Shown: positions 2,857 through 18,367 of the stretch, one piece after another
How positions within the stretch are numbered: the first letter of the stretch is position 1
Layout of the letters: each line of letters opens with the position of its first letter
IMG/VR virus record: IMGVR_UViG_3300026224_000020
Span: 1-26,296 of that record
Source of the DNA: a virus
Lineage: Duplodnaviria; Heunggongvirae; Uroviricota; Caudoviricetes
Strand: one strand, 5' to 3'
Length of the DNA stretch: 26,296 nucleotides
Notes under the pieces: generated by a model
Told to the model about the DNA's origin: nothing
The model's input: the letters and a program-made list of their open reading frames with translations, nothing else
Databases searched by the model: none
Position numbers and translations under genes: made by a program

Positions 2857-3075
2857 TCAAAGAGAGAGCGCCACCTGTCCTGATTTCATTGGATGCGGCT
2901 GAACCGGATTTGACTCTTTTGGCGTTGCAATCGAACGAACAAAAGTTTCATGGGTAACAAAAGTATGGCTGCAGTTAATGTTCTGGCACTGGTTGTAACG
3001 CTCTTTGGTCAATGAAGATACCTGAAAACTGCTGCGAGTATGGGCGGCACTTCCACACAGTGGGCAAATCATCAT
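2857..3075 (-). CDS. ogr: late gene transcriptional activator Ogr (zinc-finger)
   Basis: CPLCG...C..C..C zinc-finger pattern (MMICPLCGSAAHTRSS...YNQCQNINCSHTF) typical of P2 Ogr/Delta; start placed at the internal Met giving 72 aa (P2 Ogr size from memory); the track ORF extends to 3108. Confidence 0.82.
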   Translation of the reverse strand: MMICPLCGSAAHTRSSFQVSSLTKERYNQCQNINCSHTFVTHETFVRSIATPKESNPVQPHPMKSGQVALSL

Positions 3076-3165
3076 TTTTCGAGTTCTCCCCATTTTTGCT
3101 AAATTCACAATAATGATACCGCATTATTCCATTTTGCAAACTTAAAAGTTCTCCATTGCGAAGAA

Positions 3166-4266
3166 TCATTCCATTTCGAAATCATCAATCCTCACTTCAA
3201 GCTCCAGACTGGTCGTAAAACCGTTATCCGGGCTGACGGTATGCGTCAGAGTCGTAATGGTCCATTCCGCATCATCTATCGGCTGTTTAAAACCACTGAC
3301 CTTCACAGGCATTTCCGTGTAGAGATCTGCCCGCCCTTCTGCCAGTTGTAGCGAAAATGACGCAACGCCGCGTTGCAGGCGTTCCCACTGCATTTTCGCC
3401 GCTCGTTCGGCGTTGCTCCGGTTGGCATAAGTGCGATTAAGTACCAGCACGTTTTCATCCGTACCCACCAGGTAATCGCCCTGCTTCGCTTCTGGCTCTT
3501 TCTTCTGCTTCTTAGTTCTGCGCTTACGCTTCACCGTGGTGCTTTCTTTCTTCGCAGGTTCGCGGGTATGCAACCAGCTGGCAATTACGCCCGTGTAGGC
3601 TCCGCGATCTGCCAGGGTAAATCGGTGACTGTCGCCGTCCTTGCGTGTGATAGTGATCACTGGCAGAGGTTTACCAGTGGCGCTTTTGCCCTGCCCCTGC
3701 CGGATGAATAACAGATTGCCATTTTTCACCGACGCGATGGCACCGTACTGTCGCGCCAGCCGCATCAGAAAACTGCCGTCACTCTCATTAGTCTGGTCTA
3801 TATGCTCCACGGGCTTATCCGACAGGTCTTTACCCAGTGCCATCTTCAGCTTGTGCCGCGCGGCTATTTCCTTCACCACTTCCCCGACGGTGGTCTTATG
3901 CCACGATTTTTCACGGCGGGTATTCAGCGCTTCCCGAAAATCAGCACTTCGCGCCCGGATAGTCAGGCGGTCCGGTGCGCCAGTGTGTTCAATCTCGTCC
4001 ACCGTGAATGTCCCTTTCGGGAAAAGCGGCTGCCCCTTCCAGCCCAGCGCCAGCGTAATGACCGCACCACGGCGCGGCAGCACGATTTTTCCGTCGGCGT
4101 CGTCCAGCTCCAGATCAAGCTGGTCCGCGTCAAAGCCCCGATTGTCCGTCAACGTCAGACTCATCAGACGGTTATCCAGCACAGTAGTGATATCCCTGCC
4201 CTCAATACTGATGCTGAATGCGGGAGTTTTGTTGCCTTTGTTAAGCAGTTCAGAGCTGAAATTCAC
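3166..4266 (-). CDS. D: tail protein D (late control gene D family)
   Basis: 366-aa ORF in the P2 gpD position; lysine-rich central stretch (KRKRRTKKQKKEPEAK) and overall similarity to gpD as recalled; overlaps U by 4 nt. Confidence 0.85.
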   Translation of the reverse strand: MNFSSELLNKGNKTPAFSISIEGRDITTVLDNRLMSLTLTDNRGFDADQLDLELDDADGKIVLPRRGAVITLALGWKGQPLFPKGTFTVDEIEHTGAPDRLTIRARSADFREALNTRREKSWHKTTVGEVVKEIAARHKLKMALGKDLSDKPVEHIDQTNESDGSFLMRLARQYGAIASVKNGNLLFIRQGQGKSATGKPLPVITITRKDGDSHRFTLADRGAYTGVIASWLHTREPAKKESTTVKRKRRTKKQKKEPEAKQGDYLVGTDENVLVLNRTYANRSNAERAAKMQWERLQRGVASFSLQLAEGRADLYTEMPVKVSGFKQPIDDAEWTITTLTHTVSPDNGFTTSLELEVRIDDFEME

Positions 4267-4748
4267 GACAGCAGCCCTCCCACCGTTTTACTGATATCAC
4301 TTAAGGCAGATGTTGCCGTGTCCTGCAGATTATTCAGTTGCGTACTGAGATCACCGAACATATCGGACAGGGATTCATCCACCCGTTTGAGCGACAGGGT
4401 GAACTCAATCCGGCGCGGCATACCATCGCGGAAAAACTCCGTTTTAGTCTGATTCAGTCCCTCAATCACATACATGCCATAAATCGTGCCGCTGCCTTCA
4501 ATCAGGGGCCATGCTTTCCCCTGTTCTGCCATCTGCTCCAGTGCCAGCAACGACAGCCTGCCGCCTGTTATCTCCGGCATAAGAACACCAGAAAGCGTCA
4601 GCATGTCGTTGTCCGGTCCCAGAAACTGCGTGGACGGACGACGATTTACCCGACTGTTTGCCGCATGTCGCCAGCTGCGTTGATACTGCAGCTCCTGATA
4701 CGGTACGGTGCGCAGCATAAACACGTACAATCCCAGCACCATCATCAT
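4263..4748 (-). CDS. U: tail protein U
   Basis: 161-aa ORF in the gpU position between T and D; start overlaps the T stop (translational coupling). Confidence 0.82.
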   Translation of the reverse strand: MMMVLGLYVFMLRTVPYQELQYQRSWRHAANSRVNRRPSTQFLGPDNDMLTLSGVLMPEITGGRLSLLALEQMAEQGKAWPLIEGSGTIYGMYVIEGLNQTKTEFFRDGMPRRIEFTLSLKRVDESLSDMFGDLSTQLNNLQDTATSALSDISKTVGGLLS

Positions 4749-7700
4749 GCGTCGTATCCCCCCTGATCGCTGTAGTTACTCCTGGCTTTTGCCTTCAGCC
4801 TGCGTTCACGTTCATCAAGCTGGCGTGCCACCTCCCGCGCAATATCCTGCGCACTTTGTCCTGGCTGCGTCTGGATGATGATCTGCGTCGGTGCCTCAAT
4901 CCGGTGAACGGGCGGCACAGCAGCTGCGCGACTCACCATCGCTTCACCGCCTTTCGCGGGAAGTGCCAAAGGATGCAACGGTGGAAGCTCTGCTGGCGCG
5001 GCAGCAACGCCCATCATTCCGGCGACAACCGCAGCCAGTGCAGCGGTATTTCTCCGGCTGGTCACGTTTGCCGGACCGTTGACAATTTCCGGCCCGTTTT
5101 CACCGACAATGCCGAACTGCCCGCGCGGGATATACCCGCCGCTGTCATACATCCCCGCAAAGCCATATCCCCATGACGGAAAACCACCCGATGGCATTAT
5201 CACTTTACCGTCTGCATTCACCGTCGCAGGTTGCTGACGCGTCACGCTTTCCGGCAGTTTCGCTTTTGCAGCCTCTTTACTGACAATGCCGAGTTTCTCC
5301 AGCAACCAGGAAACGCCGGATTTCAGGGAGTCCAGCGGATGCATGACCATATTCAGCCCTTCCGCCAGTGCCTCTCCGAATCGCCGCCCCATTGCCGCTG
5401 CACTCTGCAGTTCGGCAGAGGTCGACTTAACGGGCGTCAGCAGATCAGTAAACCAGCCCCACAGCGCCTGTACTTTGTCGCCAATCCACTGAAACACAGG
5501 CTTAAGTGGTTCGAATGCTGCACTGATGGGACCTGCCGCCGCTTTGAATCCTTCCACCACACCAGCGAGAAATGCGGTGATGGGTTGCCAGTATTTCCAG
5601 ACAACCAGCGCCACGCCCGCCAGTGCAGTAACCACAAGACCTATCGGACTGAGCAGAGCACCTAACAGACCAGATATGGCATACAGGGCAACGCGCAGCA
5701 TCGCCAGCGGACCGGATGCCAGTACTCGCAGCACCGCGCCTGCGGCAGCCAGTCCACCGCGTAGTGCTGCCAGTGGATTCATAAACATCACAGCAACAGC
5801 ACGTAAACCGGATAATCCAGACCGCAACAGTGCAACCGGCACACCTGCTACAGTTTTCAGGACATTCCCCGTCAGTGATGCCGTGCGGCGCAAAGACGAC
5901 AACGGCGCAGTAAGTAAACCCGCTGCGTTGCCCGATGAAGCAAGCCCGCGTCGCAGCAGTGCCAGTGGAGTGCCAGCTAACCAGGACAACGCGCTGCTGG
6001 TTCGTGTTACTGCTGCCGTAACGGAAGGTAACGTTTTGATACCCAGCACAGAGAATCCCAGACGGATGACTGCCAGCGGCCCCAGCACTGCAGCCAGCGC
6101 CACCGCTAAGGTGCCGAGGCCTAGGGTAACCGCAGCCACAACAGCCGCTACTTTCATCAGTGTGCCTATCAGTTCCGGGTTAGCTTCCACCCAGCGGCGC
6201 AACGCCCCCGTGATGCTTTTCACCGTGTACAGAATATCCATCAGCGGCTGGCGCAGCGTTTCGCCCAGGCTGCTGAAGGTATTCTGTGCAGTGGTTTTGA
6301 CCAGCAACCACTGCGCAGAAAGTGAATCCTTGTTAATGTCGGATTCTTTCTGCATGGAGCCGAGCGCATCATTGCCCGCTGTCAGTTTTAGCTGGCGCTG
6401 TAGTTCCGGCAGGTTGTTTGCCAGTTTCGCCGCGTCATCGCCAAACTCTTTACCAAACAACATAGTCATGGCAGACAGACGCTTGTCCTGCGGCAGTGCG
6501 TTCACCTTCTCCAGCACACGCTGGATAGTTCCCATCGCATCCTTCGTCATCTGCTTTTCAATCACTTCAGGATTGAGTTTCAGCAGATTCATCCCTTCAA
6601 AGAAACTCTTGCTCTGCATGGTGGCAATGGACAATTCACGCACCATCGCGTTTGCTGCACTGGCTGCAACCTCCGGCGCAGCGCCCAGTGTCAGGAAGGT
6701 GGAACCCAGCGCCGCCGCTTTACGATAATCCAGACGGTCAGCCACACCGCCCAGGCGTTGCATCACATCAATGATGTCCGCCCCTTTCGACATGGCGTTA
6801 TCATCCAGATAGTTCAGCGCATCACCGAGCTGTTCAATATTGCGGGTAGGGATTTTGTAGAGCTGAGCGATTTTCCCCAGACTTTCTGACAGTTCATCCG
6901 CTGGCAGCTCAAAGGCTGTTGCCGCCTTTGCTGCTGTGCTGGCGAAGGCCAGCAGGTCACGTTTCTGGTCTTCCCAGCTGTCGTCAGGGTTTGCGACGTT
7001 CATGCGCGCCCCACCTTCAACCAGTGCGGCGAAGTCCACCGCACCGTTTTCCATCGGCAGCTGTTCGCTGGCAGCCTTGATGGCATCCTGCATTTCATAA
7101 AAACGTGCAGTACGGTTTCCATTATCGTCACGCAGACCATTGACCTGCTTTGCCACACCTTTCATGGCATCTTCCATGCTGGTATAGCTTTTTACTGCCG
7201 CCATCACTGGCGTCCCCATTGCCAGCCCTGCAGCCGTGGTAGTGGCTCCGGCTCCTGCAATACGATCGCGCACCTCCAGCGAACGGGCATAACTGGCACG
7301 CGCCGCATTCATCCTGCGCTGAGCTTCACCCAGTCGCTTCAGCCGCGCCTCCTGTTTCGACAATTCCTGGTTATAACGTGATGTTTCACGGGCTAAACGG
7401 GCAGTTGCTCCCGCATCATCTTTCGCAGAAATTCCCGCCCGGTACAGTTCTGCACGCACAAGCGCCGTTTGCTTCTGCAAATATTTTTGTTGTTCTTCCA
7501 GGCGTTGGACTGCCAGCGTTTGCCGACCTAAAGCCACAAGGTGCCGTTGTGATGGTTGTTCCATCGCCTCCAGCTCAGAGCTAAGCAAATTAGCCTTCTG
7601 TCTGGCATAGTTCAGCCTGTCGCCTAACTTCTTGTTATCGGCCTGCAGCTTGCGAAATTTTTCCAGGCTGTTACCCGCCTGATTGAGTTGCTTTAATGCG

Positions 7701-7822
7701 TCACGGGAGTTTCTGATTGCGCCAGCCAGCTCTTTCGAACTGGCCTGTGCAGCACGGAATGGGCGGGTGAGTTTGTCAACCGCATTAAGAATGACCTGCA
7801 GCCGCAGGTTATTATTACTCAT
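4745..7822 (-). CDS. T: tail tape measure protein
   Basis: 1025-aa ORF with coiled-coil-like N-terminal part and a long Ala/Leu/Gly-rich hydrophobic repeat segment typical of tape measure proteins; directly downstream of E/E' as in P2. Confidence 0.88.
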   Translation of the reverse strand: MSNNNLRLQVILNAVDKLTRPFRAAQASSKELAGAIRNSRDALKQLNQAGNSLEKFRKLQADNKKLGDRLNYARQKANLLSSELEAMEQPSQRHLVALGRQTLAVQRLEEQQKYLQKQTALVRAELYRAGISAKDDAGATARLARETSRYNQELSKQEARLKRLGEAQRRMNAARASYARSLEVRDRIAGAGATTTAAGLAMGTPVMAAVKSYTSMEDAMKGVAKQVNGLRDDNGNRTARFYEMQDAIKAASEQLPMENGAVDFAALVEGGARMNVANPDDSWEDQKRDLLAFASTAAKAATAFELPADELSESLGKIAQLYKIPTRNIEQLGDALNYLDDNAMSKGADIIDVMQRLGGVADRLDYRKAAALGSTFLTLGAAPEVAASAANAMVRELSIATMQSKSFFEGMNLLKLNPEVIEKQMTKDAMGTIQRVLEKVNALPQDKRLSAMTMLFGKEFGDDAAKLANNLPELQRQLKLTAGNDALGSMQKESDINKDSLSAQWLLVKTTAQNTFSSLGETLRQPLMDILYTVKSITGALRRWVEANPELIGTLMKVAAVVAAVTLGLGTLAVALAAVLGPLAVIRLGFSVLGIKTLPSVTAAVTRTSSALSWLAGTPLALLRRGLASSGNAAGLLTAPLSSLRRTASLTGNVLKTVAGVPVALLRSGLSGLRAVAVMFMNPLAALRGGLAAAGAVLRVLASGPLAMLRVALYAISGLLGALLSPIGLVVTALAGVALVVWKYWQPITAFLAGVVEGFKAAAGPISAAFEPLKPVFQWIGDKVQALWGWFTDLLTPVKSTSAELQSAAAMGRRFGEALAEGLNMVMHPLDSLKSGVSWLLEKLGIVSKEAAKAKLPESVTRQQPATVNADGKVIMPSGGFPSWGYGFAGMYDSGGYIPRGQFGIVGENGPEIVNGPANVTSRRNTAALAAVVAGMMGVAAAPAELPPLHPLALPAKGGEAMVSRAAAVPPVHRIEAPTQIIIQTQPGQSAQDIAREVARQLDERERRLKAKARSNYSDQGGYDA

Positions 7823-8251
7823 CGTTGGCCCCGCTTCTCTGAATCGCTTTATACCGCCATTCCAGCACTTCGGTCAGCGGCATAACGTCAGTAACGGATG
7901 GCGGCCAGTGAAAAATGGTGGCGATATCTGCCACCAGATCGTCAACCGTCAGGCTGTCGGTAAACCGGCAAGCACCGACTTCTTCAACAAAAAAGTGACA
8001 ACCTCAACCGACATGGCAGTGAGATCTGCCGGGTCCATCTCTGCAATTTCCTGTGCAGTCAGTACCGGACTGGAGATGCGGGGGATCACGGTCATCATCG
8101 CGTTCACATCCATATCCATAATGGCCTGCAGGCGTGTACCGCGCAGCGCACCGGACTGCGGTTTACGCAGCACAATTTCGGTAATTTCTGTTTTACCGCG
8201 CTTGATAGGGGTATCCAGTTGAATGGTCTTTTCAGTCTGCTTATCGCTCAT
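7815..8251 (-). CDS. tail assembly chaperone E+E' (product of programmed -1 frameshift)
   Basis: Hand translation: E frame reads ...V T F L L K K S... across minus-strand T-TTT-TTG (7988-7994); the -1 frame continues open from there (VEEVGACRFTDSLTVDDLVADIATIFHWPPSVTDVMPLTEVLEWRYKAIQRSGANDE) to a TAA at 7815-7817 that overlaps the T start codon. Confidence 0.7.
7949..8251 (-). CDS. E: tail assembly chaperone E
   Basis: 100-aa ORF between FII and T; contains the slippery heptamer near its 3' end. Confidence 0.8.
   Translation of the reverse strand: MSDKQTEKTIQLDTPIKRGKTEITEIVLRKPQSGALRGTRLQAIMDMDVNAMMTVIPRISSPVLTAQEIAEMDPADLTAMSVEVVTFLLKKSVLAGLPTA
7988..7994 (-). other. -1 programmed ribosomal frameshift slippery site TTTTTTG
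   Basis: Plus strand reads caaaaaa, i.e. minus-strand T-TTT-TTG in the E reading frame; same heptamer class as the P2 E/E' and lambda G/GT sites. Confidence 0.7.
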
Positions 8252-8305
8252 TTTGTTGTCCTGTAAATTGGGTTCTGGCGCGGTATCCCGCGCCGTTCAG
8301 ATAGA

Positions 8306-8821
8306 TCAGAGGCCGAGGGCGTTGCGGTGCGCTTCCATCAGGTCTACACCGTCCACAATTTCCACCATGTTGATAAGGTCCACTTCATAGAGCACCTCAC
8401 CATTGATGGTCAGCTTCGCGTAGCTGTTGGTACTGGTCACTTTGGTGGTGTTGCTTTCGCCCGTCTTCCACTCGCCGGAATCCACTTCTTTGTGACGTCC
8501 ACGCACCACAAGCTCCACAGCCTGCACTTCCCCGGTATCGTCACGCTGGATAGAGCCGGTAAAGCGCAGCTGGATGCCATCCACCGTGGCTTTGCCCATC
8601 TGCTTAAACAGCAGCAGTTCAGTACCACCAATGGAAAATTCTGTATCCAGTGCACTGTCATCCAGTCCCAGATCCACATCCACCGCCCCCGGCATTCCGC
8701 CACCGCGATACTTCTCATATTTGCGGGTGAATTTCGGCAGCGTCAGCGACTCAACGATCCCCTGCCAGTTGTTCCCGTCGTTAAACAGGTTCAGGTGTTT
8801 TAATTTGCGTGGTAAAGCCAT
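8306..8821 (-). CDS. FII: tail tube protein FII
   Basis: 171-aa ORF in the gpFII position, size matching P2 FII (from memory). Confidence 0.87.
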   Translation of the reverse strand: MALPRKLKHLNLFNDGNNWQGIVESLTLPKFTRKYEKYRGGGMPGAVDVDLGLDDSALDTEFSIGGTELLLFKQMGKATVDGIQLRFTGSIQRDDTGEVQAVELVVRGRHKEVDSGEWKTGESNTTKVTSTNSYAKLTINGEVLYEVDLINMVEIVDGVDLMEAHRNALGL

Positions 8822-8830
8822 GTTGTCCCC

Positions 8831-10003
8831 TTACGCGCTGACCTGGCTGGCAAAATTCACCAGGTACTGATCGGTGATGCGCTGGCGCAGCATCAGATTT
8901 TCAAGTGGCGGCACTGGCGTGTAGTCATAGTCGATGGTGAGTTTTCCGGCTTTCAGCGTGTCTTTGTCGTTCACCGACTCATCCAGCCAGCAATCACCAC
9001 CAATGAGATAGCCTTGACTGACCAGGCTGCGCATTTTGGCGCGGATACCTTCGATAATGTCGCGGGCCAGCGACGGGTTAAGCGGTTTATCCACCGCCCA
9101 CATGTGTGCTTCTGCCATCGTGTCCATCAGCACCTGCGCCGTGCGGGTGTAGTTTTCGAAGGCAAAGAGCGGGTCATCACTCAGGCAGCGGGAACCCCAG
9201 AAGCGGAAACCGTCTTTACGCACAAGTGTGGTGACGTCGTTCTGGTTCAGCAGACCTGCATCGGTTGCCGGGTCCTGCAGATCCCAGAACACATCTGCAG
9301 AAATTCCGGTGACACCGTTCACGCCCACGTTGGACAGGCTTTTGTGCCACCCGGTCTGCTCATCAATTTTGGCACGCAGACCAAGCGCACGGGCGGTGGC
9401 ATATGCCGTTGCTTCGGCATTCAGCACCGTGTCCCAGCCAGTAAAGTCAGGCCAGATCAGCATTCCTTCGCGCTGGCTGAAATTTTCACGGTAAGTGATC
9501 GCCTCCTGTACCGTCTTGCAGCCATACGCTGACAGGTAGGCAAACCCACGCAGGCTTTGCGCCACACTCAGCAACTCAGTAGCAACGGCTTTGTTATCGT
9601 GACCTGGCACGCCGAGAATGCGCGGTTTAACGCCGAGCTGTGTCTGGGCAGATAACAGGGCTTTCATGCCTGTTTTTTTACCTTCAGCAGTCACTGCGCC
9701 GATGATATTGGTCGTGGTTTCTTCTTCCGTTTCACCCTGCGGCACACGCACAACAACGGTCACGGGTTTTGCCTGGTCAGCGATGGCATCCAGCGAACGG
9801 GCCAGCGTGCCGGACTCACCCGCTTTACCGCTGGCAGTCAGCACGTCAGTGATCAGTACAGGTTTATTAAGAGGAAACATTTTTGCATCGGCATCATCGC
9901 CCGTGCAGACCATACCCACGATGGCGGTGCTCACCGTGGTAATGGATCGGGTGCCTTCGTTGACTTCAACAACGCGCACCCCGTGGTGGTAATCCTGAGC
10001 CAT
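8831..10003 (-). CDS. FI: contractile tail sheath protein FI
   Basis: 390-aa ORF immediately upstream of FII; size and position match P2 FI. Confidence 0.88.
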
Positions 10004-10078
10004 AGTGGCGAACCTCCTGATTGGATTAGGCTTCGCCCTATGTTGTATTGATTACGCCATGCAGACAGCTGATGTGCG

Positions 10079-10098
10079 TTGTACGGTTAATCACACAA
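10079..10098 (-). promoter_or_regulatory. candidate Ogr-binding element (TTGT-N12-ACAA) of the FI-operon late promoter
   Basis: ttgtACGGTTAATCACacaa about 80 bp upstream of the FI start codon; matches the TGT-N12-ACA late-promoter element recalled for P2/P4/186. Confidence 0.4.
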
Positions 10099-10195
10099 CG
10101 TCGCAGGAAATTTTCGGAACGGCGTTGATAACTAAAAACGTTGTTCTGGGATAGGGGGCACTTTACAGGACGGGAATTAATACTCGTTTTAAAAG

Positions 10196-10230
10196 GCTTC
10201 GTCGGTTGACGAGAGCCTTTTTTGCTTTTA
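10196..10230 (-). terminator. putative terminator after the acyltransferase cargo gene
   Basis: Imperfect hairpin GGCTTCGTC-ggttgac-GAGAGCC flanked by T-runs on both strands, directly after the stop at 10232. Confidence 0.4.
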
Positions 10231-10231
10231 C

Positions 10232-11242
10232 TTAAATATTTTGATTCTGATAAGCCTGCGTTATTCTTTTCATAAGCTTATGTCTGAACGATTCCAAGGG
10301 AGATTCAATGCAATGATAGGCAATAGCCCCACCGCCAATACATAAAGCTATAGTAACTAAGTATGCAGTAACATTATCCAAAAATTTAGGATAAACAATA
10401 AAAATTATCATTATATGAAACAAATAAATTGAAAAACTATATTTCCCCAAATCCGCCATGATTTTTGAAGATAAAACCGCGCTTACATACCCACTGGAAT
10501 TTACTTGCAGATATACAAAGAGAGCAATAAATGGCCCCAATACCACAAATTTATTACCCAGCCAACCATTAGCCCCCTGAAAAGGAGGGGTCAACATTAT
10601 AAATATTAATATAATCGCAATTGACACCCCATCACTAACGAGAGATGATATTTTAATTTGAAAATAGTTATACATAAACGCAATTATAATTCCATACATA
10701 AAAACAGGAATGTAATACGGTAGCCTACCGTTGATTTCGTCATCCGTATAAGGGTATATAAAAGCGAACGCTAAGGTTAACAATATCAAAAACAACAAAG
10801 AATATTTTCTACCTGCAACTTTCTGGATACTAGATGCGAGATAAACCACAATCGGCAACAAAAAGTAAAACTTGAATTCTATCGGAATAGTCCAGAGATG
10901 GATGTAAGTACTATCAAATGAAATTATCGATTTCATTTTCTCTAAATCATAAAATCCCATAAGGTAATAAATTAATACTGCAATATAAAAAATCGGTAAT
11001 ATCCTTATTGTTCGCCCTAAAAGATAACTCAACACATTCAAAAACGAAAAACCAGAATTAATAAATTTATGTGTCAACAAAAAGGCGCTAAGAACAAAAA
11101 ACAACCAAACACCGGGCTGCCCCGTACCTCCGAGATGATCATGAAGTGAGGGAAAGAATAGTCCCGTAGAATGCATCACCACAACAATCATCAAAGCGAA
11201 ACCTCTCACGCCATCGGCAGAACGTATTTTATTCTCTTTCAT
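10232..11242 (-). CDS. acyltransferase family 3 membrane protein (putative O-antigen/surface polysaccharide O-acetyltransferase), prophage cargo
   Basis: Polytopic hydrophobic protein whose N-terminus (MKENKIRSADGVRGFALMIVVVMHS) fits the acyltransferase-3 R-x10-H signature; start placed at the internal Met (track ORF runs to 11320); visibly AT-rich, in the Z/fun moron slot. Confidence 0.8.
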   Translation of the reverse strand: MKENKIRSADGVRGFALMIVVVMHSTGLFFPSLHDHLGGTGQPGVWLFFVLSAFLLTHKFINSGFSFLNVLSYLLGRTIRILPIFYIAVLIYYLMGFYDLEKMKSIISFDSTYIHLWTIPIEFKFYFLLPIVVYLASSIQKVAGRKYSLLFLILLTLAFAFIYPYTDDEINGRLPYYIPVFMYGIIIAFMYNYFQIKISSLVSDGVSIAIILIFIMLTPPFQGANGWLGNKFVVLGPFIALFVYLQVNSSGYVSAVLSSKIMADLGKYSFSIYLFHIMIIFIVYPKFLDNVTAYLVTIALCIGGGAIAYHCIESPLESFRHKLMKRITQAYQNQNI

Positions 11243-11369
11243 ATTGATTTTTTTATTAAAAAACGGGAATCTAATATTATCACAGAAACAGACAACAAAC
11301 AGCCTCCCCCTCGTATTCATACCATATAGGCAGTGTGGGGGAGGATGATACTAACCATTTAATTCTCAG

Positions 11370-11966
11370 TCACTCGGGCTTCCTCGGCCACGTTATATCT
11401 GGCGCAGTTGACGTGTCTACCAACTGCACCGCTTTGATGTAATTCATCCAGGTGATTAGTCTGACTTTATCTTCATCACTGATAATTCCTAATTGTAGTT
11501 CTGTCTGCCATAGATTGATTGTTAGCTGAGCCTTTGCCAGAAGCTCCGCTTTCTTCTGATCAGCAGTTTCCACGTCAACCTCGTGCTGCATCTCGGTATC
11601 TGTCACCCATGCACTACCGTTCCACTTATCGTATGGTGTAGCAGGAGGTAGTTTCGTAGTTTTTTCTGGGTAATCGCCGAGCACTGTTACAGCTATTTTT
11701 TTGCCAGTTTCGGTGCTGTAAACAGTCTCACCTCGATGATCAGCAATATATTCCCACGCGGTAAGATCCTTAGTCCGGCAAATGGTTAACCCTTTTTTAC
11801 TTTTACCCGGCATATCAATGCATGAATTAGCAGGAATCCCAACCCCTACAGCAAGAAATTCAACACTAGAAGAAAGATATTCACGAGTTTCAATATCAAA
11901 GTTAAACACCGTTATATTGCCAGATTCCACAGCTATAAACTCATTATTTAGTTTCGCTTCTGTCAT
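11370..11966 (-). CDS. G: tail fiber assembly protein
   Basis: 198-aa ORF immediately downstream of H with TAATG stop/start overlap; position matches P2 gpG. Confidence 0.85.
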   Translation of the reverse strand: MTEAKLNNEFIAVESGNITVFNFDIETREYLSSSVEFLAVGVGIPANSCIDMPGKSKKGLTICRTKDLTAWEYIADHRGETVYSTETGKKIAVTVLGDYPEKTTKLPPATPYDKWNGSAWVTDTEMQHEVDVETADQKKAELLAKAQLTINLWQTELQLGIISDEDKVRLITWMNYIKAVQLVDTSTAPDITWPRKPE

Positions 11967-13393
11967 TATGCTGCTCTCACAATGTAATTAAATGAAATAT
12001 TCCGTGGACGTGTTTCTGCCGCTGTTCGTGTTATCGTACTTGAATCTAAGTGAGCCTGTTTATATTGTGAGATGCTTGTTGCCTGTGTAACAATACCGTC
12101 TCCGCTTTCACGATCTATACCCGTAAAAGCTCCATCAGCATAAGTAAACATACCGTTTGTACCATAGCCAATGGAGCCGATAATCGGCTGCATAGCATCA
12201 GTCTGAGACGTTAGAACCTGACGTCCAGCGTCTACGCCACGCCCATCGTCCCAGCCGCGAATAAACTCACTGCGTAGATCTGGTAATTTTAATGACGGAT
12301 AAACCTGCGCCAGTTTCGGATATTGCGAGGAACTGAATGATGCTCCATTACACTTCAACCAACCTTCCGGCGGTATTGCAGTAGGCCACGGAACAGGAAC
12401 ACCGACTGGCAACGCACTGCCCTCCCCAAGATGAAGGTTTTTTAGAAAAGCAGAAACATCGGCAATATCAGCGCCATTAGCTGCTTTGTTCATTTTTCCC
12501 GCCAGCGCACTCATTACTGTTGTCGCAAAGTTAGGATCATTCCCCAGCGCAGCAGCCAATTCATTTAACGTATCCAGCGCCTCCGGCGATGAACCGACCA
12601 TCTCGGCAACTGCCGCTTTCACAAATGCCGTGGTGGCAATCTGCGTATTGTTCGCCGTCTGCGCTGCAGTCGGAGCCGTCGGCGTTCCGGTCAGGGCCGG
12701 ACTTGCCAGTGGAGCTTTCAACGCCAGTGCGTTATTTAGCGCAGTGACCACCGCCTGCACAAATGCCGTGCTAGCAATCTGAGTCGTGTTAGTTCCCGCC
12801 GGTGCTGTTGGCGTTTTCGGCGTGCCAGTCAATGTTGGGCTGTCTTTGGGCGCATACTGCGTATGAGGATCTGCAGCAGCAAGATGCTTTGCCATCAGGT
12901 CATCCACATACACCTTAAGCTCAAGCACCTTGTCATCCACATACTTGCGGGTTGCCAGCACCACTGAAGGGTCAATTTTCAGTGTGATATTATCGGTACT
13001 GCTGGTAATCAGCACCATCCGTACGGTCTGGGTACGCCCGCTGCCTTCAGCCAGTTGCGGTTTATAGCTTTCCGGGCAGTTGCCCACGGCAATCAATGCC
13101 CCTGACTCATCAAACAGGCCCACTTCACGTATCCACCAACCGCCCTCGTTTTCAGGGATCACCTGTTCAGCAATAATCTGGCTGCTGTTCTGCGGGTCGA
13201 TATAGAGCATATTCAGCGCAGCCCGGCGTTTCTCATTTACCAGTGCAGTCTGCTTTGCGTCCGGCGTCGGCAATGCTCCGCCGCCATCGCCCACCGCCAT
13301 ATGGGTAATTTTTAGCGGCACACCGAGCGCGGCGGCGCTGGCAAGTTTCGCCGCGCCAATATCCGTCAGCAGGGTATAAAATTTTGTGCTCAT
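11966..13393 (-). CDS. H: tail fiber protein
   Basis: 475-aa ORF with conserved P2 H-like N-terminus (MSTKFYTLLTDIGAAKLA...) and internal repeats (SPTLTGTPKTPTAP... / SPALTGTPTAPTAA...); C-terminal part diverged. Confidence 0.88.
   Translation of the reverse strand: MSTKFYTLLTDIGAAKLASAAALGVPLKITHMAVGDGGGALPTPDAKQTALVNEKRRAALNMLYIDPQNSSQIIAEQVIPENEGGWWIREVGLFDESGALIAVGNCPESYKPQLAEGSGRTQTVRMVLITSSTDNITLKIDPSVVLATRKYVDDKVLELKVYVDDLMAKHLAAADPHTQYAPKDSPTLTGTPKTPTAPAGTNTTQIASTAFVQAVVTALNNALALKAPLASPALTGTPTAPTAAQTANNTQIATTAFVKAAVAEMVGSSPEALDTLNELAAALGNDPNFATTVMSALAGKMNKAANGADIADVSAFLKNLHLGEGSALPVGVPVPWPTAIPPEGWLKCNGASFSSSQYPKLAQVYPSLKLPDLRSEFIRGWDDGRGVDAGRQVLTSQTDAMQPIIGSIGYGTNGMFTYADGAFTGIDRESGDGIVTQATSISQYKQAHLDSSTITRTAAETRPRNISFNYIVRAA
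12608..12847 (-). repeat. tandem degenerate repeat inside tail fiber gene H
   Basis: Two roughly 35-aa units (KDSPTLTGTPKTPTAPAGTNTTQIASTAFVQAVV / LASPALTGTPTAPTAAQTANNTQIATTAFVKAAV) also visible as DNA repeats. Confidence 0.7.
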
Positions 13394-13995
13394 GGATTCA
13401 CTCTCATTGTGTCAATAACATGGACCGCCCCGCCTTCATGCGCGGTGCCGCCGGAAATAATTGTTTCGTTGATATACGGATAGATCGTGATTTCTTCGCC
13501 AAGATAGCTGGCGGCCCCAACCCAATGCGGACCGCTGGTCTGCAGATTGATGGACATGCCGATCATGTGACGGCTACATGGTTTGGCATCGCTTATCAGC
13601 CGCTCAAGTTCCAGATAGGTATCTTCAGTGATGCCCTGATCCTGCACGCCAATGTCCAGGCGAAACGTGCCCGGTGTTTCTCCGGTCTGCCACCACTCAA
13701 TAATGCGGATCAGGAATCCGAACGGTTCCACCACCCGCCGCACGGCACTGGTGGTTCCTTTATGCTGATGAATATAAAAAGCATCCTTCACTACCTGGCG
13801 TTTGACGCTTTCTGTCCAGCCCTCGTCCCAGCGATCCACAGAGAACGCCCAGGCGAGATAAGGCAGGAAGCTGACCGGACAGGTAGCCGGATTCCACAAG
13901 TCACGCAGCGGCACCTGCAAATCAGAAATCCCGCTACAGGTTTGCGCCAGTCGGCGCTCCAGTGAAGTTGAACCCGGTGGCAGCAGACTATTCAT
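13390..13995 (-). CDS. I: baseplate protein I
   Basis: 201-aa ORF between J and H, overlapping the H start; position matches P2 gpI. Confidence 0.83.
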   Translation of the reverse strand: MNSLLPPGSTSLERRLAQTCSGISDLQVPLRDLWNPATCPVSFLPYLAWAFSVDRWDEGWTESVKRQVVKDAFYIHQHKGTTSAVRRVVEPFGFLIRIIEWWQTGETPGTFRLDIGVQDQGITEDTYLELERLISDAKPCSRHMIGMSINLQTSGPHWVGAASYLGEEITIYPYINETIISGGTAHEGGAVHVIDTMRVNP

Positions 13996-14896
13996 CCGTT
14001 CCTCCGTTGGTTACGCTCCACTGCGTACATGATGCCGCCTGTGTTTTGTTCAGGACCACATCCGCCAGCGGAGAAGCCAGTTCCACACGTTGAACACCCT
14101 CAACATGCAGAGCAGCAAAGATGGCGCTACGGCGAATATCCCGACCAAGCCTCGTCTGGCTGGCAATGTACTTCTGCAGACTGGCTTTTGCCGCTGCCAT
14201 TACCGGCTCTGCTTCCGGTCCCGGATAGAGAAAAATGGTGGCTTCCACGCGATACGGGATGATTTCTGCGCTGCGAACCGTAAGACGGTCAGCCACCGGG
14301 CGGACGTTCTCACTGTTCAGAGCTTTTTCCACCACGTCCAGCAGGTCTTTTTCTGCAGTTCCATCGCCTTCGCGGCTAAGGACAGTCAGTACCACCTCTG
14401 CAGGTGCCGGGCTGGTTGCACTGGCATCCGCCACCCGACCGTCGGCGCTTCGGGCATGAAATTCATAAGCTGCAGTTGGCCCCGCAACAGAAAGCCCTTC
14501 AAAGGCTGCAGGCACACGCAGGCGCAACGCTTCATCGCTTTCCATCACAGCTGCAACGGGCGGCACAGCATCATTATCAGCAGGCGTCACCGTCAGGCGT
14601 GTCACGTTGTAGTTGGCAGCGAGCTGGTCAAGATCGCCACCCATCGCGTAAGCCACCATCACCGCCTGCGCGGCTTCGTTAATGCGCTGGCGCAGAAGCA
14701 ACTCACGGTAAGCGTTCTCCTGCAACAATTTAGTGGCGGGTTCAGATTCCAGTTCCAGCGTGCGGATCACTGCTTCCTGCTCATCTTTCGGATGAAGCGC
14801 CACAAATTCTGCCTTGCGTTCGGCAAGCAGCGTCTCAAAGTCCGGCACATCCACAATCTGCGGTGCAGGCAACTGCGAAAGGTCAATCACTGCCAT
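13988..14896 (-). CDS. J: baseplate assembly protein J
   Basis: Start placed at internal Met (MAVIDLSQLPAPQIVDV...) giving 302 aa, the P2 J size from memory; the track ORF extends to 14935 and would overlap W. Confidence 0.85.
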   Translation of the reverse strand: MAVIDLSQLPAPQIVDVPDFETLLAERKAEFVALHPKDEQEAVIRTLELESEPATKLLQENAYRELLLRQRINEAAQAVMVAYAMGGDLDQLAANYNVTRLTVTPADNDAVPPVAAVMESDEALRLRVPAAFEGLSVAGPTAAYEFHARSADGRVADASATSPAPAEVVLTVLSREGDGTAEKDLLDVVEKALNSENVRPVADRLTVRSAEIIPYRVEATIFLYPGPEAEPVMAAAKASLQKYIASQTRLGRDIRRSAIFAALHVEGVQRVELASPLADVVLNKTQAASCTQWSVTNGGTDE

Positions 14897-15242
14897 TCTC
14901 TGCTCCTGTTGATACGGAAAGGGACACAGGCACACCGTTATTCCGCCGCCCGGTCAGCTCCACCACCATTGAACCGTCAAAATTGCTGTTGATGGTGATG
15001 GAATCCAGCGTCAACCGTGGCTCCCAGCGACTCAGCGCCACATACACTGCCGACATGACCTGCAGGCGTAATGCCGGATTTTGTGGCTGATCTATCAGTG
15101 CCGACAGCAGGGAACCATATTCCCGGCGGGCAATACGGCTACCCTGCGGTGTCAGCAGAATGTCCCGCACCGACTGGCGCAGATGATCAATATCAGTAAT
15201 GACTTTGCCGCTGGTATTGTTCATCCCGCTATAAAGCGTCAT
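14883..15242 (-). CDS. W: baseplate wedge protein W (gp25-like)
   Basis: 119-aa ORF between V and J; size and position match P2 gpW. Confidence 0.85.
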   Translation of the reverse strand: MTLYSGMNNTSGKVITDIDHLRQSVRDILLTPQGSRIARREYGSLLSALIDQPQNPALRLQVMSAVYVALSRWEPRLTLDSITINSNFDGSMVVELTGRRNNGVPVSLSVSTGAENGSD

Positions 15243-15817
15243 ACCGGGCCTCCGGTTGTATCGCCGCCTTTCAGGACGCCAGTATGCTGATGCGCATCAA
15301 CCACGATCCCGTTAGAACTCATCGCTCCGCCGCCCTGGGTAACGCCACCATTGATCACCACTTCGCTGTTAATGCGCGTGCGGTCAGCCTCCAGTACAAA
15401 CTCACTGGTTTTCATGGTGATGTTGTCAGCAGCCTCAATGACCATTGATTTGATGCCCCTGACATACCAGCGCCCGGTGGCGGGTTCGTATTCAAACCAG
15501 CCACCGTCAGGATGTTCTGTCACGCAGGCGTCCGCCGACGTCGACGGTGGTGCGAACTGATTCGAATAGACAGCGGGCAGCGCAAAGGCGGTTTCCAGAT
15601 TGCCGCCCAGACTCAGCAGCACCACCTGCTCACCTTCCGATGGTCGCCACCATGTACGGGCATTCCCGGCACGCAGCGTCAGCCAGCTGATCCAGTTGGT
15701 TTCAAGCTCGCCCGTTTTCACCCGGCAAAGCCAGTTTTCCCTGTCCACTTCGGTGACTACCCCTGTGCGGATCAGGTTGGTGATAAGGCGCATGATTTCG
15801 GTTAATTGTGCGTTCAT
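15239..15817 (-). CDS. V: baseplate central spike protein V
   Basis: 192-aa ORF with N-terminus resembling P2 gpV; overlaps the W start by 4 nt. Confidence 0.85.
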   Translation of the reverse strand: MNAQLTEIMRLITNLIRTGVVTEVDRENWLCRVKTGELETNWISWLTLRAGNARTWWRPSEGEQVVLLSLGGNLETAFALPAVYSNQFAPPSTSADACVTEHPDGGWFEYEPATGRWYVRGIKSMVIEAADNITMKTSEFVLEADRTRINSEVVINGGVTQGGGAMSSNGIVVDAHQHTGVLKGGDTTGGPV

Positions 15818-15862
15818 AGGGAAAGGTTGCCATCAGGGGAAGAAAGGCGGCAGTGCTGCAAC

Positions 15863-15882
15863 TTGTATCAGTGCTGATACAA
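15863..15882 (-). promoter_or_regulatory. candidate Ogr-binding palindrome (TGT-N12-ACA) of the V-operon late promoter
   Basis: Perfect inverted repeat TTGTATCAG-tg-CTGATACAA between the S stop (15886) and V start (15817); no U-tract follows on either strand, so not an intrinsic terminator. Confidence 0.5.
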
Positions 15883-15885
15883 AGA

Positions 15886-16332
15886 TCACCCCGCCAGCCA
15901 TTGCAGAATCATGTCGCGGGTCATTGCCTCAACATCATCATTTACACCCAGAAGGCGACGCTCTGCGTAACGCACCTCCGGTCCCTTACGACTGACGCGA
16001 TCTCGCAGGCCGTAATGGTGAACACGGGCAATGCGCTGCACCTTACCTTCAAACTGCACGCTGGCAGAGTCGGCGCTGGCGGCAGTTTTCAGGTATTTTG
16101 TGGTGCGCAGCTTTGCAAACATCTGACGTTTGATGCGCCCCTTCTTGCTGCGTGCTGTTACCCTGCGCGGTTCATAACTGCTGCCATCTGGATTGCGCTG
16201 CATCCTGATATTCTGCTGCTGTGTCCGGCGCAGTTCCTGCGCCAGCTGGCGCATCATGCGGCTTCTCGTGGCTGGTTCCAGATTCGCCAGCAAGGCACTC
16301 AGCCAGTCGTCCACCTTCTGCAGTTCAGCCAC
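15886..16332 (-). CDS. S: tail completion protein S
   Basis: 148-aa ORF downstream of R with overlapping start; size matches P2 gpS. Confidence 0.83.
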   Translation of the reverse strand: MAELQKVDDWLSALLANLEPATRSRMMRQLAQELRRTQQQNIRMQRNPDGSSYEPRRVTARSKKGRIKRQMFAKLRTTKYLKTAASADSASVQFEGKVQRIARVHHYGLRDRVSRKGPEVRYAERRLLGVNDDVEAMTRDMILQWLAG

Positions 16333-16777
16333 GTTTCACCGTCCACATTTCTTCAGGTTCATCGGGTTCTGCTACAGCTTCAACGCTCGACACACTGCCG
16401 TCAGTGCTGACCAGCACACGTTCCGTCAGTTGCAGGTTAAGGCTGATATCACAGACATCGTTGCGCAAAATATCCACATCAAAGGTGAATAGCTTTTCCC
16501 GTAACGCCGGGTTATTGATGGCATCGGGCTGGTTATCCCGCAGCCACAGCAAAACCGGGGCCATCAGCAGATTCTGGTCGCCGCTGAAATCCTCAATCAC
16601 CACGTTCAGGGTGTAGCGGTACTCCCATGACATGGAGTTGGCCCCCGTGGCAACCAGCGAACCGTTATCCACAAACAGATGCAGTTTGTCCGGGTTATTA
16701 CGGACATAAGGCACTGCTTTATTGAGGGCGTGGCGCAGGGATTGTGGTTTGTTCACTGTTTCGCTCCTGACATGCAA
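16325..16777 (-). CDS. R: tail completion protein R
   Basis: 150-aa ORF following the lysis cassette, as in P2. Confidence 0.82.
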   Translation of the reverse strand: MHVRSETVNKPQSLRHALNKAVPYVRNNPDKLHLFVDNGSLVATGANSMSWEYRYTLNVVIEDFSGDQNLLMAPVLLWLRDNQPDAINNPALREKLFTFDVDILRNDVCDISLNLQLTERVLVSTDGSVSSVEAVAEPDEPEEMWTVKRG

Positions 16778-17009
16778 TAATCATGTCCACTTTGTCTGCA
16801 CAGACCGCCCAGGCGGCCTCCGTTTCATCCAGCAATGCGTTCAGATCACCGTTAGTGCGCGGCGTTGCCTGATCCAGCCGACACGGCGTCACTCGCGGAC
16901 AACCACTGACGGTAAGCCATACCTCCGGTGAGTGCCGGACGTTTCCGCAGCCGGATAATGTCAGCAGGCAAAGGAGTATCAGCCCAGCGGCGTAAATCCT
17001 CGTTCTCAC
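16719..17009 (-). CDS. lysC: o-spanin (Rz1-like outer-membrane lipoprotein) LysC
   Basis: 96-aa ORF with lipoprotein signal and lipobox (LLCLLTLSGC); starts inside lysB in another frame and extends into the R start. Confidence 0.75.
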   Translation of the reverse strand: MRTRIYAAGLILLCLLTLSGCGNVRHSPEVWLTVSGCPRVTPCRLDQATPRTNGDLNALLDETEAAWAVCADKVDMIIACQERNSEQTTIPAPRPQ

Positions 17010-17280
17010 GTTTCAGTTCCTCGATCCGGTGTTGTCGTTGTCTCAGCAGCGTGCTGGTCTGTTCTGCTTCGGCATAGAGCCGCGCCTGCTCCCGGTTATT
17101 GGTTTCAGTCAGAATGGACAGGCTGATAAGCTGGCTATTGCTCTTTGCCAGTGCCTGGCTTTTGCTCTGCAGCTCGTCTGCCTGCGTGCTGATGGTCTGG
17201 CTGGCATCAGCCAGCCGCCACGTCTGCCAGCCCAGCGCCGCCAGTAATAACGTCAGCACAACCAGCAGCAACCGGTTCAT
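16852..17280 (-). CDS. lysB: i-spanin (Rz-like) LysB
   Basis: 142-aa ORF with N-terminal transmembrane segment (LLLVVLTLLLAALGW) and charged coiled-coil-like remainder; overlaps the lysA stop. Confidence 0.82.
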   Translation of the reverse strand: MNRLLLVVLTLLLAALGWQTWRLADASQTISTQADELQSKSQALAKSNSQLISLSILTETNNREQARLYAEAEQTSTLLRQRQHRIEELKRENEDLRRWADTPLPADIIRLRKRPALTGGMAYRQWLSASDAVSAGSGNAAH

Positions 17281-17654
17281 GCTGCTACCTGTTGCGCCAT
17301 CTGATTACGGGTGATCCAGAAGGCAATAACGGTCAGTAGATAAAAGACCAGGGTAATAGCCCACCCCGTCCAGGCGAGACTTACAACAATCAGCAATCGC
17401 ATCACCCAACTGGTAAATACGTTTTCTTTTCGGGTAATTGTCTTCAGCAAAGATGCCCTTAACTCCTGCCAGAGCGGGCCATTCTTAATTAACGCAGCCA
17501 GTGCTACCGGAATTACCGCCCATGTCAGCAAACAGGCTACCCAAACGCCGGACGCTGCCAGTACCGGAAAAATCCCCTGCGGATACACCATTGCTGCGAT
17601 TAACAGCGCCATCCATAACATCAGAAACAGTCCGCTGATTAATTTCTTTTTCAT
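17277..17654 (-). CDS. lysA: lysis timing membrane protein LysA
   Basis: Multi-pass membrane protein; start placed at internal MKKKLISG with an upstream GGAG-like RBS, just after the K stop; the track ORF extends to 17726. Confidence 0.75.
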   Translation of the reverse strand: MKKKLISGLFLMLWMALLIAAMVYPQGIFPVLAASGVWVACLLTWAVIPVALAALIKNGPLWQELRASLLKTITRKENVFTSWVMRLLIVVSLAWTGWAITLVFYLLTVIAFWITRNQMAQQVAA

Positions 17655-17655
17655 T

Positions 17656-18168
17656 TCAGTTTGCTCCCTGTAAACACCAGGCCATCTCCCGCGCACGGCG
17701 GTTATCCAGCCCCTGATTAAAAACACCTTTCACATAAACCCAGCGCGGCAACTGTCGGCACGCATCTGCCCAGCGCCGCTGATTGAGTAAATTCACCAGC
17801 GTGGAACTGCAGGCATTGCCTGTTCCCACGTTGAAGGCAAACGACACCGCAGCGTCATACACCTTCTGCGGCGGCAGTTGCTTCACACACCTTTCCAGCG
17901 CCCGCTCGACACGCAGCACGTTGGAGATCAGCCCTTCTGCTGCCTGTCGCTCCGTAATGGTTTTGCCGGGAATGACGCCTGACGTATTACCAATGCCGTC
18001 GGTCCAGACACCCGCGCTGCACTGATACGGCTGCAGACGACAACCTTCGTAATCGGCAATCAGTTTCAGCCCCTCCACGGAGGTGTGAAGCTGCTGAAAA
18101 CCCGGCAGCGTGGCAGCAATAGCCAGCACGGCCCCGACAAGGCAGCGTTTAACGATTGATGGATTCAT
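17656..18168 (-). CDS. K: endolysin (lysozyme-like) K
   Basis: 170-aa ORF with N-terminal signal-anchor-like segment followed by a lysozyme-like region (EGxxLxxYxD...G.G), positioned after the holin. Confidence 0.85.
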   Translation of the reverse strand: MNPSIVKRCLVGAVLAIAATLPGFQQLHTSVEGLKLIADYEGCRLQPYQCSAGVWTDGIGNTSGVIPGKTITERQAAEGLISNVLRVERALERCVKQLPPQKVYDAAVSFAFNVGTGNACSSTLVNLLNQRRWADACRQLPRWVYVKGVFNQGLDNRRAREMAWCLQGAN

Positions 18169-18364
18169 AGTCCTCCCGCGAGATCTGCCCGTCGCGCAGA
18201 AGCTGGTAGGCTTTGTGTTTGTAGTACCAGTTGATAGCCAGCATCAGCACACCAATCATCAGGCCGCCCAGCGTTGAGGCATCCTTGATGGACAAATCGC
18301 CCAGCCAGGCCAGCACGACGGCGATGCAATACGTGATAAAGGCGCTGATTCGCTCAAGCGTCAT
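18149..18364 (-). CDS. Y: holin Y
   Basis: 71-aa protein with two hydrophobic segments and a charged C-terminus, immediately upstream of the endolysin gene. Confidence 0.78.
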   Translation of the reverse strand: MTLERISAFITYCIAVVLAWLGDLSIKDASTLGGLMIGVLMLAINWYYKHKAYQLLRDGQISREDYESINR

Positions 18365-18367
18365 AAT

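Follow-up and report, generated by a model that had tools for sequence, protein, structure and literature searches.

The stretch of DNA analysed here (the window: all 26,296 nucleotides (nt) of the Caudoviricetes record IMGVR_UViG_3300026224_000020) belongs by homology to a P2-like prophage of Escherichia. Between its tail fibre assembly gene G and its tail sheath gene FI we found a gene of foreign composition that encodes a stand-alone membrane acyltransferase of the acyltransferase-3 (AT3) family. We lean, with moderate confidence, towards the explanation that this predicted ten-helix inner-membrane protein is lysogenic-conversion cargo (a 'moron') that O-acylates a surface glycan, probably the O-antigen. 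By analogy with AT3 enzymes that have been studied, the protein would bind acyl-coenzyme A (acyl-CoA) from the cytoplasm, most likely as acetyl-CoA, in a central cavity that Arg13, Arg77 and Arg80 line (numbering of the 336-residue protein throughout). The acyl group would then cross the membrane with His24 as the catalytic residue, and a hydroxyl of an envelope glycan would be esterified on the periplasmic side, the most likely acceptor being the repeat unit of the lipopolysaccharide (LPS) O-antigen. The most likely outcome would be an altered surface epitope and less adsorption of phages that use the glycan, including the prophage's own relatives. Phage AT3 acetylases that lie beside receptor-binding genes and mask the receptor are well established, and the gene described here is an uncharacterised further example; cargo of this kind has moreover been published before in the very same slot, as the gene neaT.

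The AT3 protein and the age of its gene

The 336-residue protein consists of a single Acyl_transf_3 domain (PF01757; E=9.1e-27, 94.4 bits against a Pfam gathering cut-off of 31 bits), with no fused SGNH domain. Two motifs are described as defining for the family and essential to it, an 'absolutely conserved' R-X10-H in transmembrane helix 1 and an RXXR at the cytoplasmic face of transmembrane helix 3 (PMC9833829). Both are present, the former as RGFALMIVVVMH (R13 and H24) and the latter as R-T-I-R (R77 and R80), together with a C-terminal Glu motif, E313-S-P. In a family alignment of 35 homologs (33-97% identity), the His, both Arg residues of RXXR and the Glu never vary, and at least 90% of the sequences keep the first Arg. 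About ten hydrophobic segments can be recognised in the protein, and an AlphaFold2 (AF2) model built from the family alignment is all-helical, with a predicted local distance difference test score of 89.8 and a predicted template modelling score of 0.89. The sole solved structural neighbour returned by a fold search was human HGSNAT with CoA (8vli_B, probability 1.0, TMq 0.54), a transmembrane acetyl-CoA:glycan acetyltransferase. In a viral model library the fold matched that of a 637-residue protein (TMq 0.70), whose length is typical of AT3-SGNH fusions. As predicted, the protein would thus adopt a ten-helix membrane fold with a central cavity. PHROGs assigned it to phrog_3333, 'O-acetyltransferase' (E=9.4e-42); no NCBIfam model matched the protein or its neighbours, and a sequence search of the PDB returned nothing at E<=1. 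By all the sequence features tested, it is a bona fide, full-length member of the AT3 family.

The GC content of the coding sequence is 0.339 (0.334 at third codon positions, GC3), compared with 0.562 (GC3 0.632) for FI and 0.522 for the whole window, a contrast far beyond chance. An initial annotation, made by reading the sequence, had described an AT-rich gene for a multi-pass membrane protein with an AT3-like N-terminus. The composition and the membrane topology are borne out, and so is the family, for which a PF01757 profile search had been proposed. The restriction to the N-terminus falls away, since the match spans residues 34-334 of the open reading frame (ORF) and profile positions 3-324 of 326.

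We searched for the gene in 5,426 complete E. coli genomes (megablast and 11-base-word blastn) and found it in none of them; the G chaperone of the window was likewise found in 0 of the 5,426, and the AT3 gene was absent from 50,697 phage records (megablast). A large collection of draft and metagenome assemblies lists the exact G protein in 209 blocks, and in all eight distinct places among those listed the AT3 gene lies beside it at the same position, with 100% identity across the gene in one assembly (L027, GCA_900479005.1). The block may circulate mainly in non-coli or under-sampled Escherichia lineages. A second clade (L001-L004) carries the gene at 96.4% nucleotide identity, with 25 synonymous and 11 non-synonymous differences (dN/dS 0.11), and the AT3 protein is better conserved in that clade (97%) than H (93%), G (90%) or FI (89%). 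A more distant copy, at 79% identity and intact, was found on an Enterobacter asburiae contig (L005, GCA_037198755.1, 3977-6876) in a decayed P2-like remnant that adjoins rpoD/dnaG and was seen in four samples. This remnant retains int, CI, a fragment of H, G (74%), the AT3 gene, D and ogr, the other tail genes having been lost. From the H C-terminus as far as pF, the late promoter of the FI operon, remnant and window are collinear, with 77% nucleotide identity. Between the two AT3 genes dS is 1.39 and dN/dS 0.09, as computed from a protein-guided codon alignment, in which dS is saturated for three further copies (L008, L009, L012). None of the 16 copies examined has an internal stop codon. 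That the cargo was kept after the phage around it decayed in E. asburiae suggests that it benefits the host.

Judging from these comparisons, the H-G-AT3 arrangement is old and purifying selection acts on the AT3 gene, so that a dead hitch-hiker is ruled out. In its broader form, this alternative holds that the gene is a non-functional passenger on recently acquired AT-rich DNA, either silent (for example through repression by H-NS) or decaying. It would accord with the unameliorated 34% GC, with the lack of a Shine-Dalgarno sequence, with the weak promoter evidence discussed below and with the absence of the gene from complete E. coli genomes. Given that 16 of 16 copies are intact, that dN/dS stays at about 0.1 across a dS of 1.39, that the gene was retained in a decayed prophage remnant and that the arrangement is the same in all eight distinct places listed for the exact G, we regard it as very improbable.

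Relatives, precedents and the probable acceptor

In five unrelated types of phage, relatives of 35-70% identity come immediately behind a tailspike or tail-fibre gene, in two cases beside gtr genes for O-antigen modification. The 70% homolog belongs to a different myovirus, where it follows a fibre gene and a Caudo_TAP chaperone gene and precedes a Peptidase_S24 gene and an integrase. The 53% homolog, in a siphovirus prophage, has a Tail_spike_N tailspike on one side and, on the other, a gtrA module of the opposite strand, which is followed by an integrase. Homologs of 43% identity come after a 758-residue protein without a Pfam match, possibly a tailspike, and before holin genes, those of 42% and 40% immediately follow the Head_binding tailspike of P22-like phages, and a 35% homolog in Pseudomonas follows a siphovirus tail fibre. 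Of two homologs at 38%, one, in a prophage region of Pantoea, has gtrA, gtrB and a glycosyltransferase gene beside it. The other lies in a Yersinia enterocolitica island by smpB (L022, 7001-8436), where it overlaps by 4 nt a downstream gene for a 133-residue SASA protein (sialate O-acetylesterase-like, PF03629), and this pair may represent the AT3-SGNH architecture divided over two genes. Farther away, a 34% homolog of P. fluorescens CFBP13716 (L038, 3709-7739) follows P2-type GpU and GpD genes and precedes a Glyco_hydro_19 lysozyme gene; its neighbours show it to be cargo that closes a P2-like tail cluster, belonging to either a prophage or a tailocin of a distant genus. Since the relatives are overwhelmingly phage cargo beside receptor-binding and gtr genes, they fit a role in modifying surface polysaccharide and masking receptors.

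Species representatives in GTDB, scanned for the context of distant members, held no relative above 38% identity. Around 31 distant chromosomal members (27-38% identity) we counted the Pfam families of the two nearest genes on each side. The commonest were RmlD, GDP-mannose dehydratase/epimerases, Polysacc_synt_2, UDP-GlcNAc 2-epimerase, Wzt_C with an ABC transporter, RmlA and RmlC.

Six characterised AT3 proteins were scored against a hidden Markov model (HMM) of the family. The AT3 domain of GtrC from phage BTP1 reached 68 bits (HMM positions 7-334 aligned to GtrC residues 8-348; 29% identity over 365 residues) and is, by this score, the closest characterised enzyme of the six. WecH followed at 25 bits (25% identity over 309 residues), Oac of phage Sf6 at 19 bits in two fragments (25% identity over 170 residues by BLASTP, E=1.25e-4), OpgC at 3 bits and NeaT at -6 bits; an uncharacterised protein of E. 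coli phage 611R6 scored 404 bits. Sf6 Oac was not among the tblastn matches of the phage collection at E<=1e-3. The comparison with OafA and Oac that the initial annotation had proposed therefore came out divided: Oac is a remote relative and not an ortholog, although the protein would work in the manner of the Oac-type, AT3-only acetylases of phages, and the resemblance is to the AT3 domain of the OafA/OafB/GtrC group, without its SGNH domain. In the same way, the surface-polysaccharide modification that it had put forward is supported in part: it fits the family, the slot and the contexts of the relatives, and what does not hold is Sf6 Oac as a close comparator.

Both GtrC and Oac offer functional precedents. 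GtrC-BTP1, which guards the lysogen against superinfection, was necessary and sufficient for protection against BTP1 infection and stops a shortening of the O-antigen for which the tailspike of the prophage itself is required (Kintz et al. 2015, PMC4413052). Like the window protein it is prophage cargo related through its AT3 domain, in its case adjoining a tailspike gene; unlike it, GtrC-BTP1 has 640 residues with a fused SGNH domain and comes from a P22-like phage, whereas the window protein is AT3-only and comes from a P2-like one. Sf6 Oac (OacA) is the textbook case of serotype conversion and superinfection immunity, the latter by hindering the tailspike endorhamnosidase (PMC9558356). Like the window protein it is AT3-only, of about 333 residues, and the product of an AT-rich moron beside a receptor-binding gene of a temperate phage. 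It also has its own promoter and terminator, for which the window offers a candidate promoter and a terminator-like hairpin (Table 1). On the other hand, apart from being a remote relative, it is carried by a podovirus and its gene is opposite in orientation to the tailspike gene. Taken together, the contexts of the homologs, the HMM score of GtrC and the precedents of GtrC and Oac make O-acylation of the O-antigen, with masking and a change of serotype, the best-supported explanation.

A possible but less likely explanation is that the enzyme acylates some other envelope glycan, such as enterobacterial common antigen, osmoregulated periplasmic glucans, capsule or colanic acid, the LPS core, poly-N-acetylglucosamine (PNAG) or cellulose. 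The benefit would then lie in host physiology or immune evasion of the kind seen with NeaT, and not in serotype conversion. AT3 enzymes as a family do act on many glycans (review PMC9558356), WecH, which acts on enterobacterial common antigen, is the second-best characterised match, and NeaT, encoded in the same slot of a sister prophage, had effects on aggregation and swarming, on curli/cellulose, on association with macrophages and on fitness in the bloodstream (PMC3573123). At the same time, the family's position beside tailspikes and gtr modules and near rml and wzt genes points to the O-antigen specifically, the HMM scores of 68 bits for an O-antigen acetylase compared with 25 for WecH and 3 for OpgC, which acts on osmoregulated periplasmic glucans, point the same way, and the Escherichia chromosome already has wecH and opgC of its own.

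Several points weigh against acylation of the O-antigen as we propose it. AT3 substrates are not fixed by sequence below 30% identity, and at 29% even the closest characterised enzyme is still distant. Moreover, GtrC-BTP1 carries out the last transfer step with its fused SGNH domain, and the window protein and its surroundings contain no such domain; the translational coupling in Yersinia hints that some members of the family need a partner. P2-type fibres bind the LPS core rather than the O-antigen, and the receptor of this prophage need not be the glycan that is modified. The 60% homolog is an orphan chromosomal gene of Ewingella with no phage or polysaccharide genes around it. Like the use of the LPS core by P2-type fibres, this would suit an acceptor other than the O-antigen. 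For the precedent in the same slot, the substrate of NeaT was not identified, and the main text of that study does not mention LPS or O-antigen (PMC3573123). As regards expression, no Shine-Dalgarno sequence precedes the start codon at 11242, the promoter is a candidate put forward on its resemblance to a consensus, and the terminator-like hairpin behind the gene has a short U-tract.

The variable block and other cargo of the lineage

The left end of the window encodes the host proteins YbjM and YbjL, and the exact YbjL sequence is recorded for Escherichia, in an E. marmotae entry and a multispecies Escherichia entry. In the record of E. coli CFT073, the P2-like prophage phi-b0847 also ends beside ybjL (b0847). 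By blastn, positions 1..10004 of the window are 93.5% identical to CFT073 (10.0 kb) and positions 12751..24551 are 96.2% identical (11.8 kb); the two prophages differ over 10005..12750 and beyond 24551. Judged by these alignments, the window is a close relative of phi-b0847, a P2-like Escherichia prophage integrated at the same ybjL site. On the minus strand its genes run I, H, G, AT3 gene, FI, FII, a gene for a 100-residue protein and the tape-measure gene T, which, the AT3 gene apart, is the tail-gene order of P2, and the AT3 gene lies directly downstream of H and G on the same strand.

A second relative, Cartapus (Elveevirus), has a backbone 95-97% identical to the window, which breaks at 10098/10099, the right edge of the variable block relative to that phage, and at 12750/12751, resuming from 12751 at 94.9% identity (blastn). 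At the place of the block Cartapus has an invertible fibre segment and an intact Gin-like invertase. As these breaks delimit it, the variable unit between the sister prophages is the C-terminus of the tail fibre protein H, the chaperone G and the cargo gene. CFT073 has a different H C-terminus and a 158-residue YfdK-type chaperone in place of the 198-residue G of the window. The initial annotation missed both this larger block and the published precedent for its cargo.

That precedent is neaT of CFT073, a PF01757 gene of 30% GC at 'moron position 2' between G and FI of phi-b0847, in opposite orientation to the tail genes (Wiles et al. 2013, PMC3573123). No other AT3 gene of this exact slot has been studied by experiment. 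The two cargo genes share the phage lineage, the ybjL site, the G-FI slot, the PF01757 domain, the broad PHROG 3333, an AT3-only architecture of about 340 residues and a GC content of about 30-34%. They differ in that no pairwise similarity is detectable between them (BLASTP E=0.18, in addition to the HMM score of -6 bits), in that the window gene is co-oriented with the tail genes, and in the H C-terminus and chaperone with which each is paired. A third variant occurs in the E. coli H9Ecoli prophage (NZ_CP029180.1 1859638-1862135, L016), whose slot holds a gene for a membrane-bound O-acyltransferase (MBOAT; PF03062, E=9.4e-41). It lies in the same place beside FI, and the backbone is related (85% identity over FII-FI), but its product is of another superfamily, it is oriented opposite to the tail genes, and the slot also holds a gene for a 341-residue protein without a Pfam match and a frameshifted invertase. 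The G-FI slot of one phage lineage thus holds three unrelated membrane O-acyltransferases, namely the NeaT-type AT3, the AT3 of the window and the MBOAT. A 2026 paper on P2-like diversity and Rousset et al. 2022 make no mention of acyltransferases at the G-FI slot, and the 2026 paper in Nucleic Acids Research names the Z/fun locus only, as a defence locus (PMC13586616).

In P2 itself this slot, between the V-operon terminator and pF, holds fun(Z), likewise a non-essential lysogenic-conversion gene, which however encodes an unrelated 528-residue protein (BLASTP E=0.39), lies on the opposite strand and blocks T5. It could accordingly be argued that the AT3 gene serves primarily in anti-phage defence or exclusion, as fun(Z), old and tin do, acting independently of glycan acylation, for example by perturbing the membrane or by abortive infection. 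The literature view of Z/fun as a defence locus would agree with this, and so would the other cargo site of the same prophage. There, beyond the portal gene Q at P2 'moron position 1' (the old/tin hotspot), a 469-residue 'hypothetical protein' (24684-26093, minus strand) has no Pfam match and matches the PADLOC families PD-T7-1 (E=3.5e-196) and PD-T7-5 (3e-56); given the PD-T7-1 match, the prophage carries an anti-phage defence gene at that site, where phi-b0847 has other genes, the homology with CFT073 ending at 24551. For the AT3 protein, by comparison, no PADLOC defence-system family matched at E<=0.01, there is no similarity to Fun(Z), and the invariance of the AT3 catalytic motifs throughout the family argues for selection on enzymatic activity. 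Moreover, to mask a receptor by acylation is already to exclude phages, so that mechanism is all that separates the two explanations. A defence function without acylation seems to us quite unlikely.

Returning to acylation of a surface glycan, the alternative blocks of fibre tip, chaperone and acyltransferase at one site of one lineage suggest that binding and masking are exchanged together, and this block structure is the modestly novel aspect of the present case. We hypothesise, tentatively, that fibre tip, chaperone and glycan acyltransferase form a heritable 'bind-and-mask' cassette that is exchanged as a unit among P2-like phages. If this doubtful idea were true, a new receptor specificity would arrive together with the enzyme that hides that receptor on the lysogen, many P2-like phages of smooth Escherichia would use acylatable glycans and not the bare LPS core as receptors, and the virulence phenotype of NeaT might be a by-product of receptor masking. 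Two near-identical prophages at the same site, each with an unrelated AT3 and its own fibre tip and chaperone, make a clean natural experiment on receptor matching, and the comparison with CFT073 offers a route to the substrate of NeaT, a bloodstream-fitness gene. Should the O-antigen indeed be O-acylated, the prophage would change its Escherichia hosts both serologically and in their identity as phage receptors, which bears on O-typing, vaccine epitopes and the host range of phages in therapy.

Coordinates and signals of the slot

The features of the slot and its flanks are collected in Table 1. The P2 reference record annotates, from G to FI, the rho-independent terminator of the V operon, fun(Z) on the opposite strand, and the activator site and start site of pF, the activator binding site lying about 70 nt upstream of FI. 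The slot of the window repeats this layout with a hairpin after G, the cargo gene and a pF-type dyad before FI. The Pfam matches of the flanking genes and the P2 record agree with the Z/fun slot between FI and G to which the initial annotation had assigned the gene.

Table 1. Features in and around the G-FI slot (positions in the window; an empty strand cell means that no strand is assigned)
Feature	Position	Strand	Basis or remark
Tail sheath gene FI (flank)	8831..10003	-	Phage_sheath_1, Phage_sheath_1C and Gp18_domIII_N matches
TGT-N12-ACA dyad TGTGTGATTAACCGTACA upstream of FI; backbone, not cargo	10080..10097	-	Equivalents at the same place in Cartapus and CFT073
Spacer of unknown origin, from the terminator-like hairpin to the FI promoter region	10099..10190		Cartapus homology (97.3%, blastn) stops at 10098
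Terminator-like hairpin, 10 nt past the AT3 stop codon	10191..10221		Free energy (dG) -16.5 kcal/mol, z = -4.3, 0/200 shuffles as stable
AT3-only membrane acyltransferase gene, cargo ('moron')	10232..11242	-	336 residues; PF01757, motifs, AF2 model, PHROG 3333, GC, dN/dS
Extended -10-like element TGTGATAAT, candidate promoter of the AT3 gene	11276..11284	-	34 nt before the AT3 start codon
Hairpin CCTCCCCC...GGGGGAGG with a U-rich run behind it, just past the G stop codon	11304..11344	-	Predicted fold; the centroid retains an 8-bp stem
Tail fibre assembly chaperone gene G, co-inherited with the AT3 gene	11370..11966	-	198 residues; PF02413 Caudo_TAP, E=2.1e-33
C-terminal (receptor-binding) part of tail fibre gene H, in the variable block	11966..12750	-	Backbone homology resumes at 12751 (CFT073 96.2%, Cartapus 94.9%)

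In the lysogen, transcription of the AT3 gene probably does not depend on that of the tail genes, given its position between two late operons behind a terminator-like hairpin, its candidate extended -10 element and its own hairpin. The hairpin after G is probably the terminator of the V-W-J-I-H-G late operon, as P2 annotates its V-operon terminator at the equivalent place, and in the E. asburiae copy both of its arms are altered with the pairing preserved. The extended -10-like element TGTGATAAT is unchanged in the identical copy as well as in the 97% copies, and almost so, as TGTGGTAAT, in the 79% copy of E. asburiae; a two-hexamer consensus promoter scan did not list it. Behind the gene, the initial annotation had seen a terminator of the gene's own. 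The hairpin there is more stable than any of its shuffled versions, but on the sense strand its tail is only UUUU and the opposite strand has a run of six T (a consensus scan lists it on the plus strand), so that with its A-run and T-run flanks it looks bidirectional.

We took the conserved ATG at 11242 as the start codon because the homologs P0002 (336 residues) and P0004 (333 residues) begin at the matching position and because the in-frame stretch upstream of it lies inside the conserved hairpin after G. The longest ORF (10232..11320, minus strand, 362 residues), which starts at an ATG at 11320, and the database calls of 356 and 319 residues were rejected on these grounds. Public calls for the same gene differ among assemblies (319, 336, 356 or 362 residues), and exact-sequence look-ups therefore easily miss it. 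The 356-residue call of the L001 clade starts at an ATG that arises inside the 3' arm of the hairpin, where the window has CTG.

On the FI side, the TGT-N12-ACA dyad is probably the Ogr/Delta activator site of the late promoter pF, an assignment made from the P2 late-promoter consensus, which we take to be established. Since the dyad matches the late promoter of the FI operon and the Cartapus homology reaches 10098, positions 10004..10098 are to be read as phage backbone, that is, as the FI-operon promoter region. Of the interval 10004-11369 given in the initial annotation, these first positions are therefore not cargo. The AT3 stop codon and FI are 228 bp apart, and no ORF with a Pfam match lies between them; a plus-strand ORF of 49 codons' worth of protein (10005..10154) was rejected as a gene for want of a Pfam match.

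Two minor observations concern sequence similarities in the window. The host protein YbjM (PF11045, E=3e-52; 290-667, minus strand) has a sub-threshold match to Acyl_transf_3 (E=3e-4, 20 bits, profile positions 147-268), which probably reflects the compositional similarity of membrane proteins. Positions 10087..10117 match, at about 88%, the final 31 nt of a recombinase/invertase gene that is frameshifted in H9Ecoli-type prophages. An invertase remnant within 10004..10231 was rejected as a feature, as the overlap is of 31 nt only and the Cartapus match ends at 10098, before the invertase gene; this short match may at most be a recombination scar, left when an invertible-fibre module was replaced by the present block.

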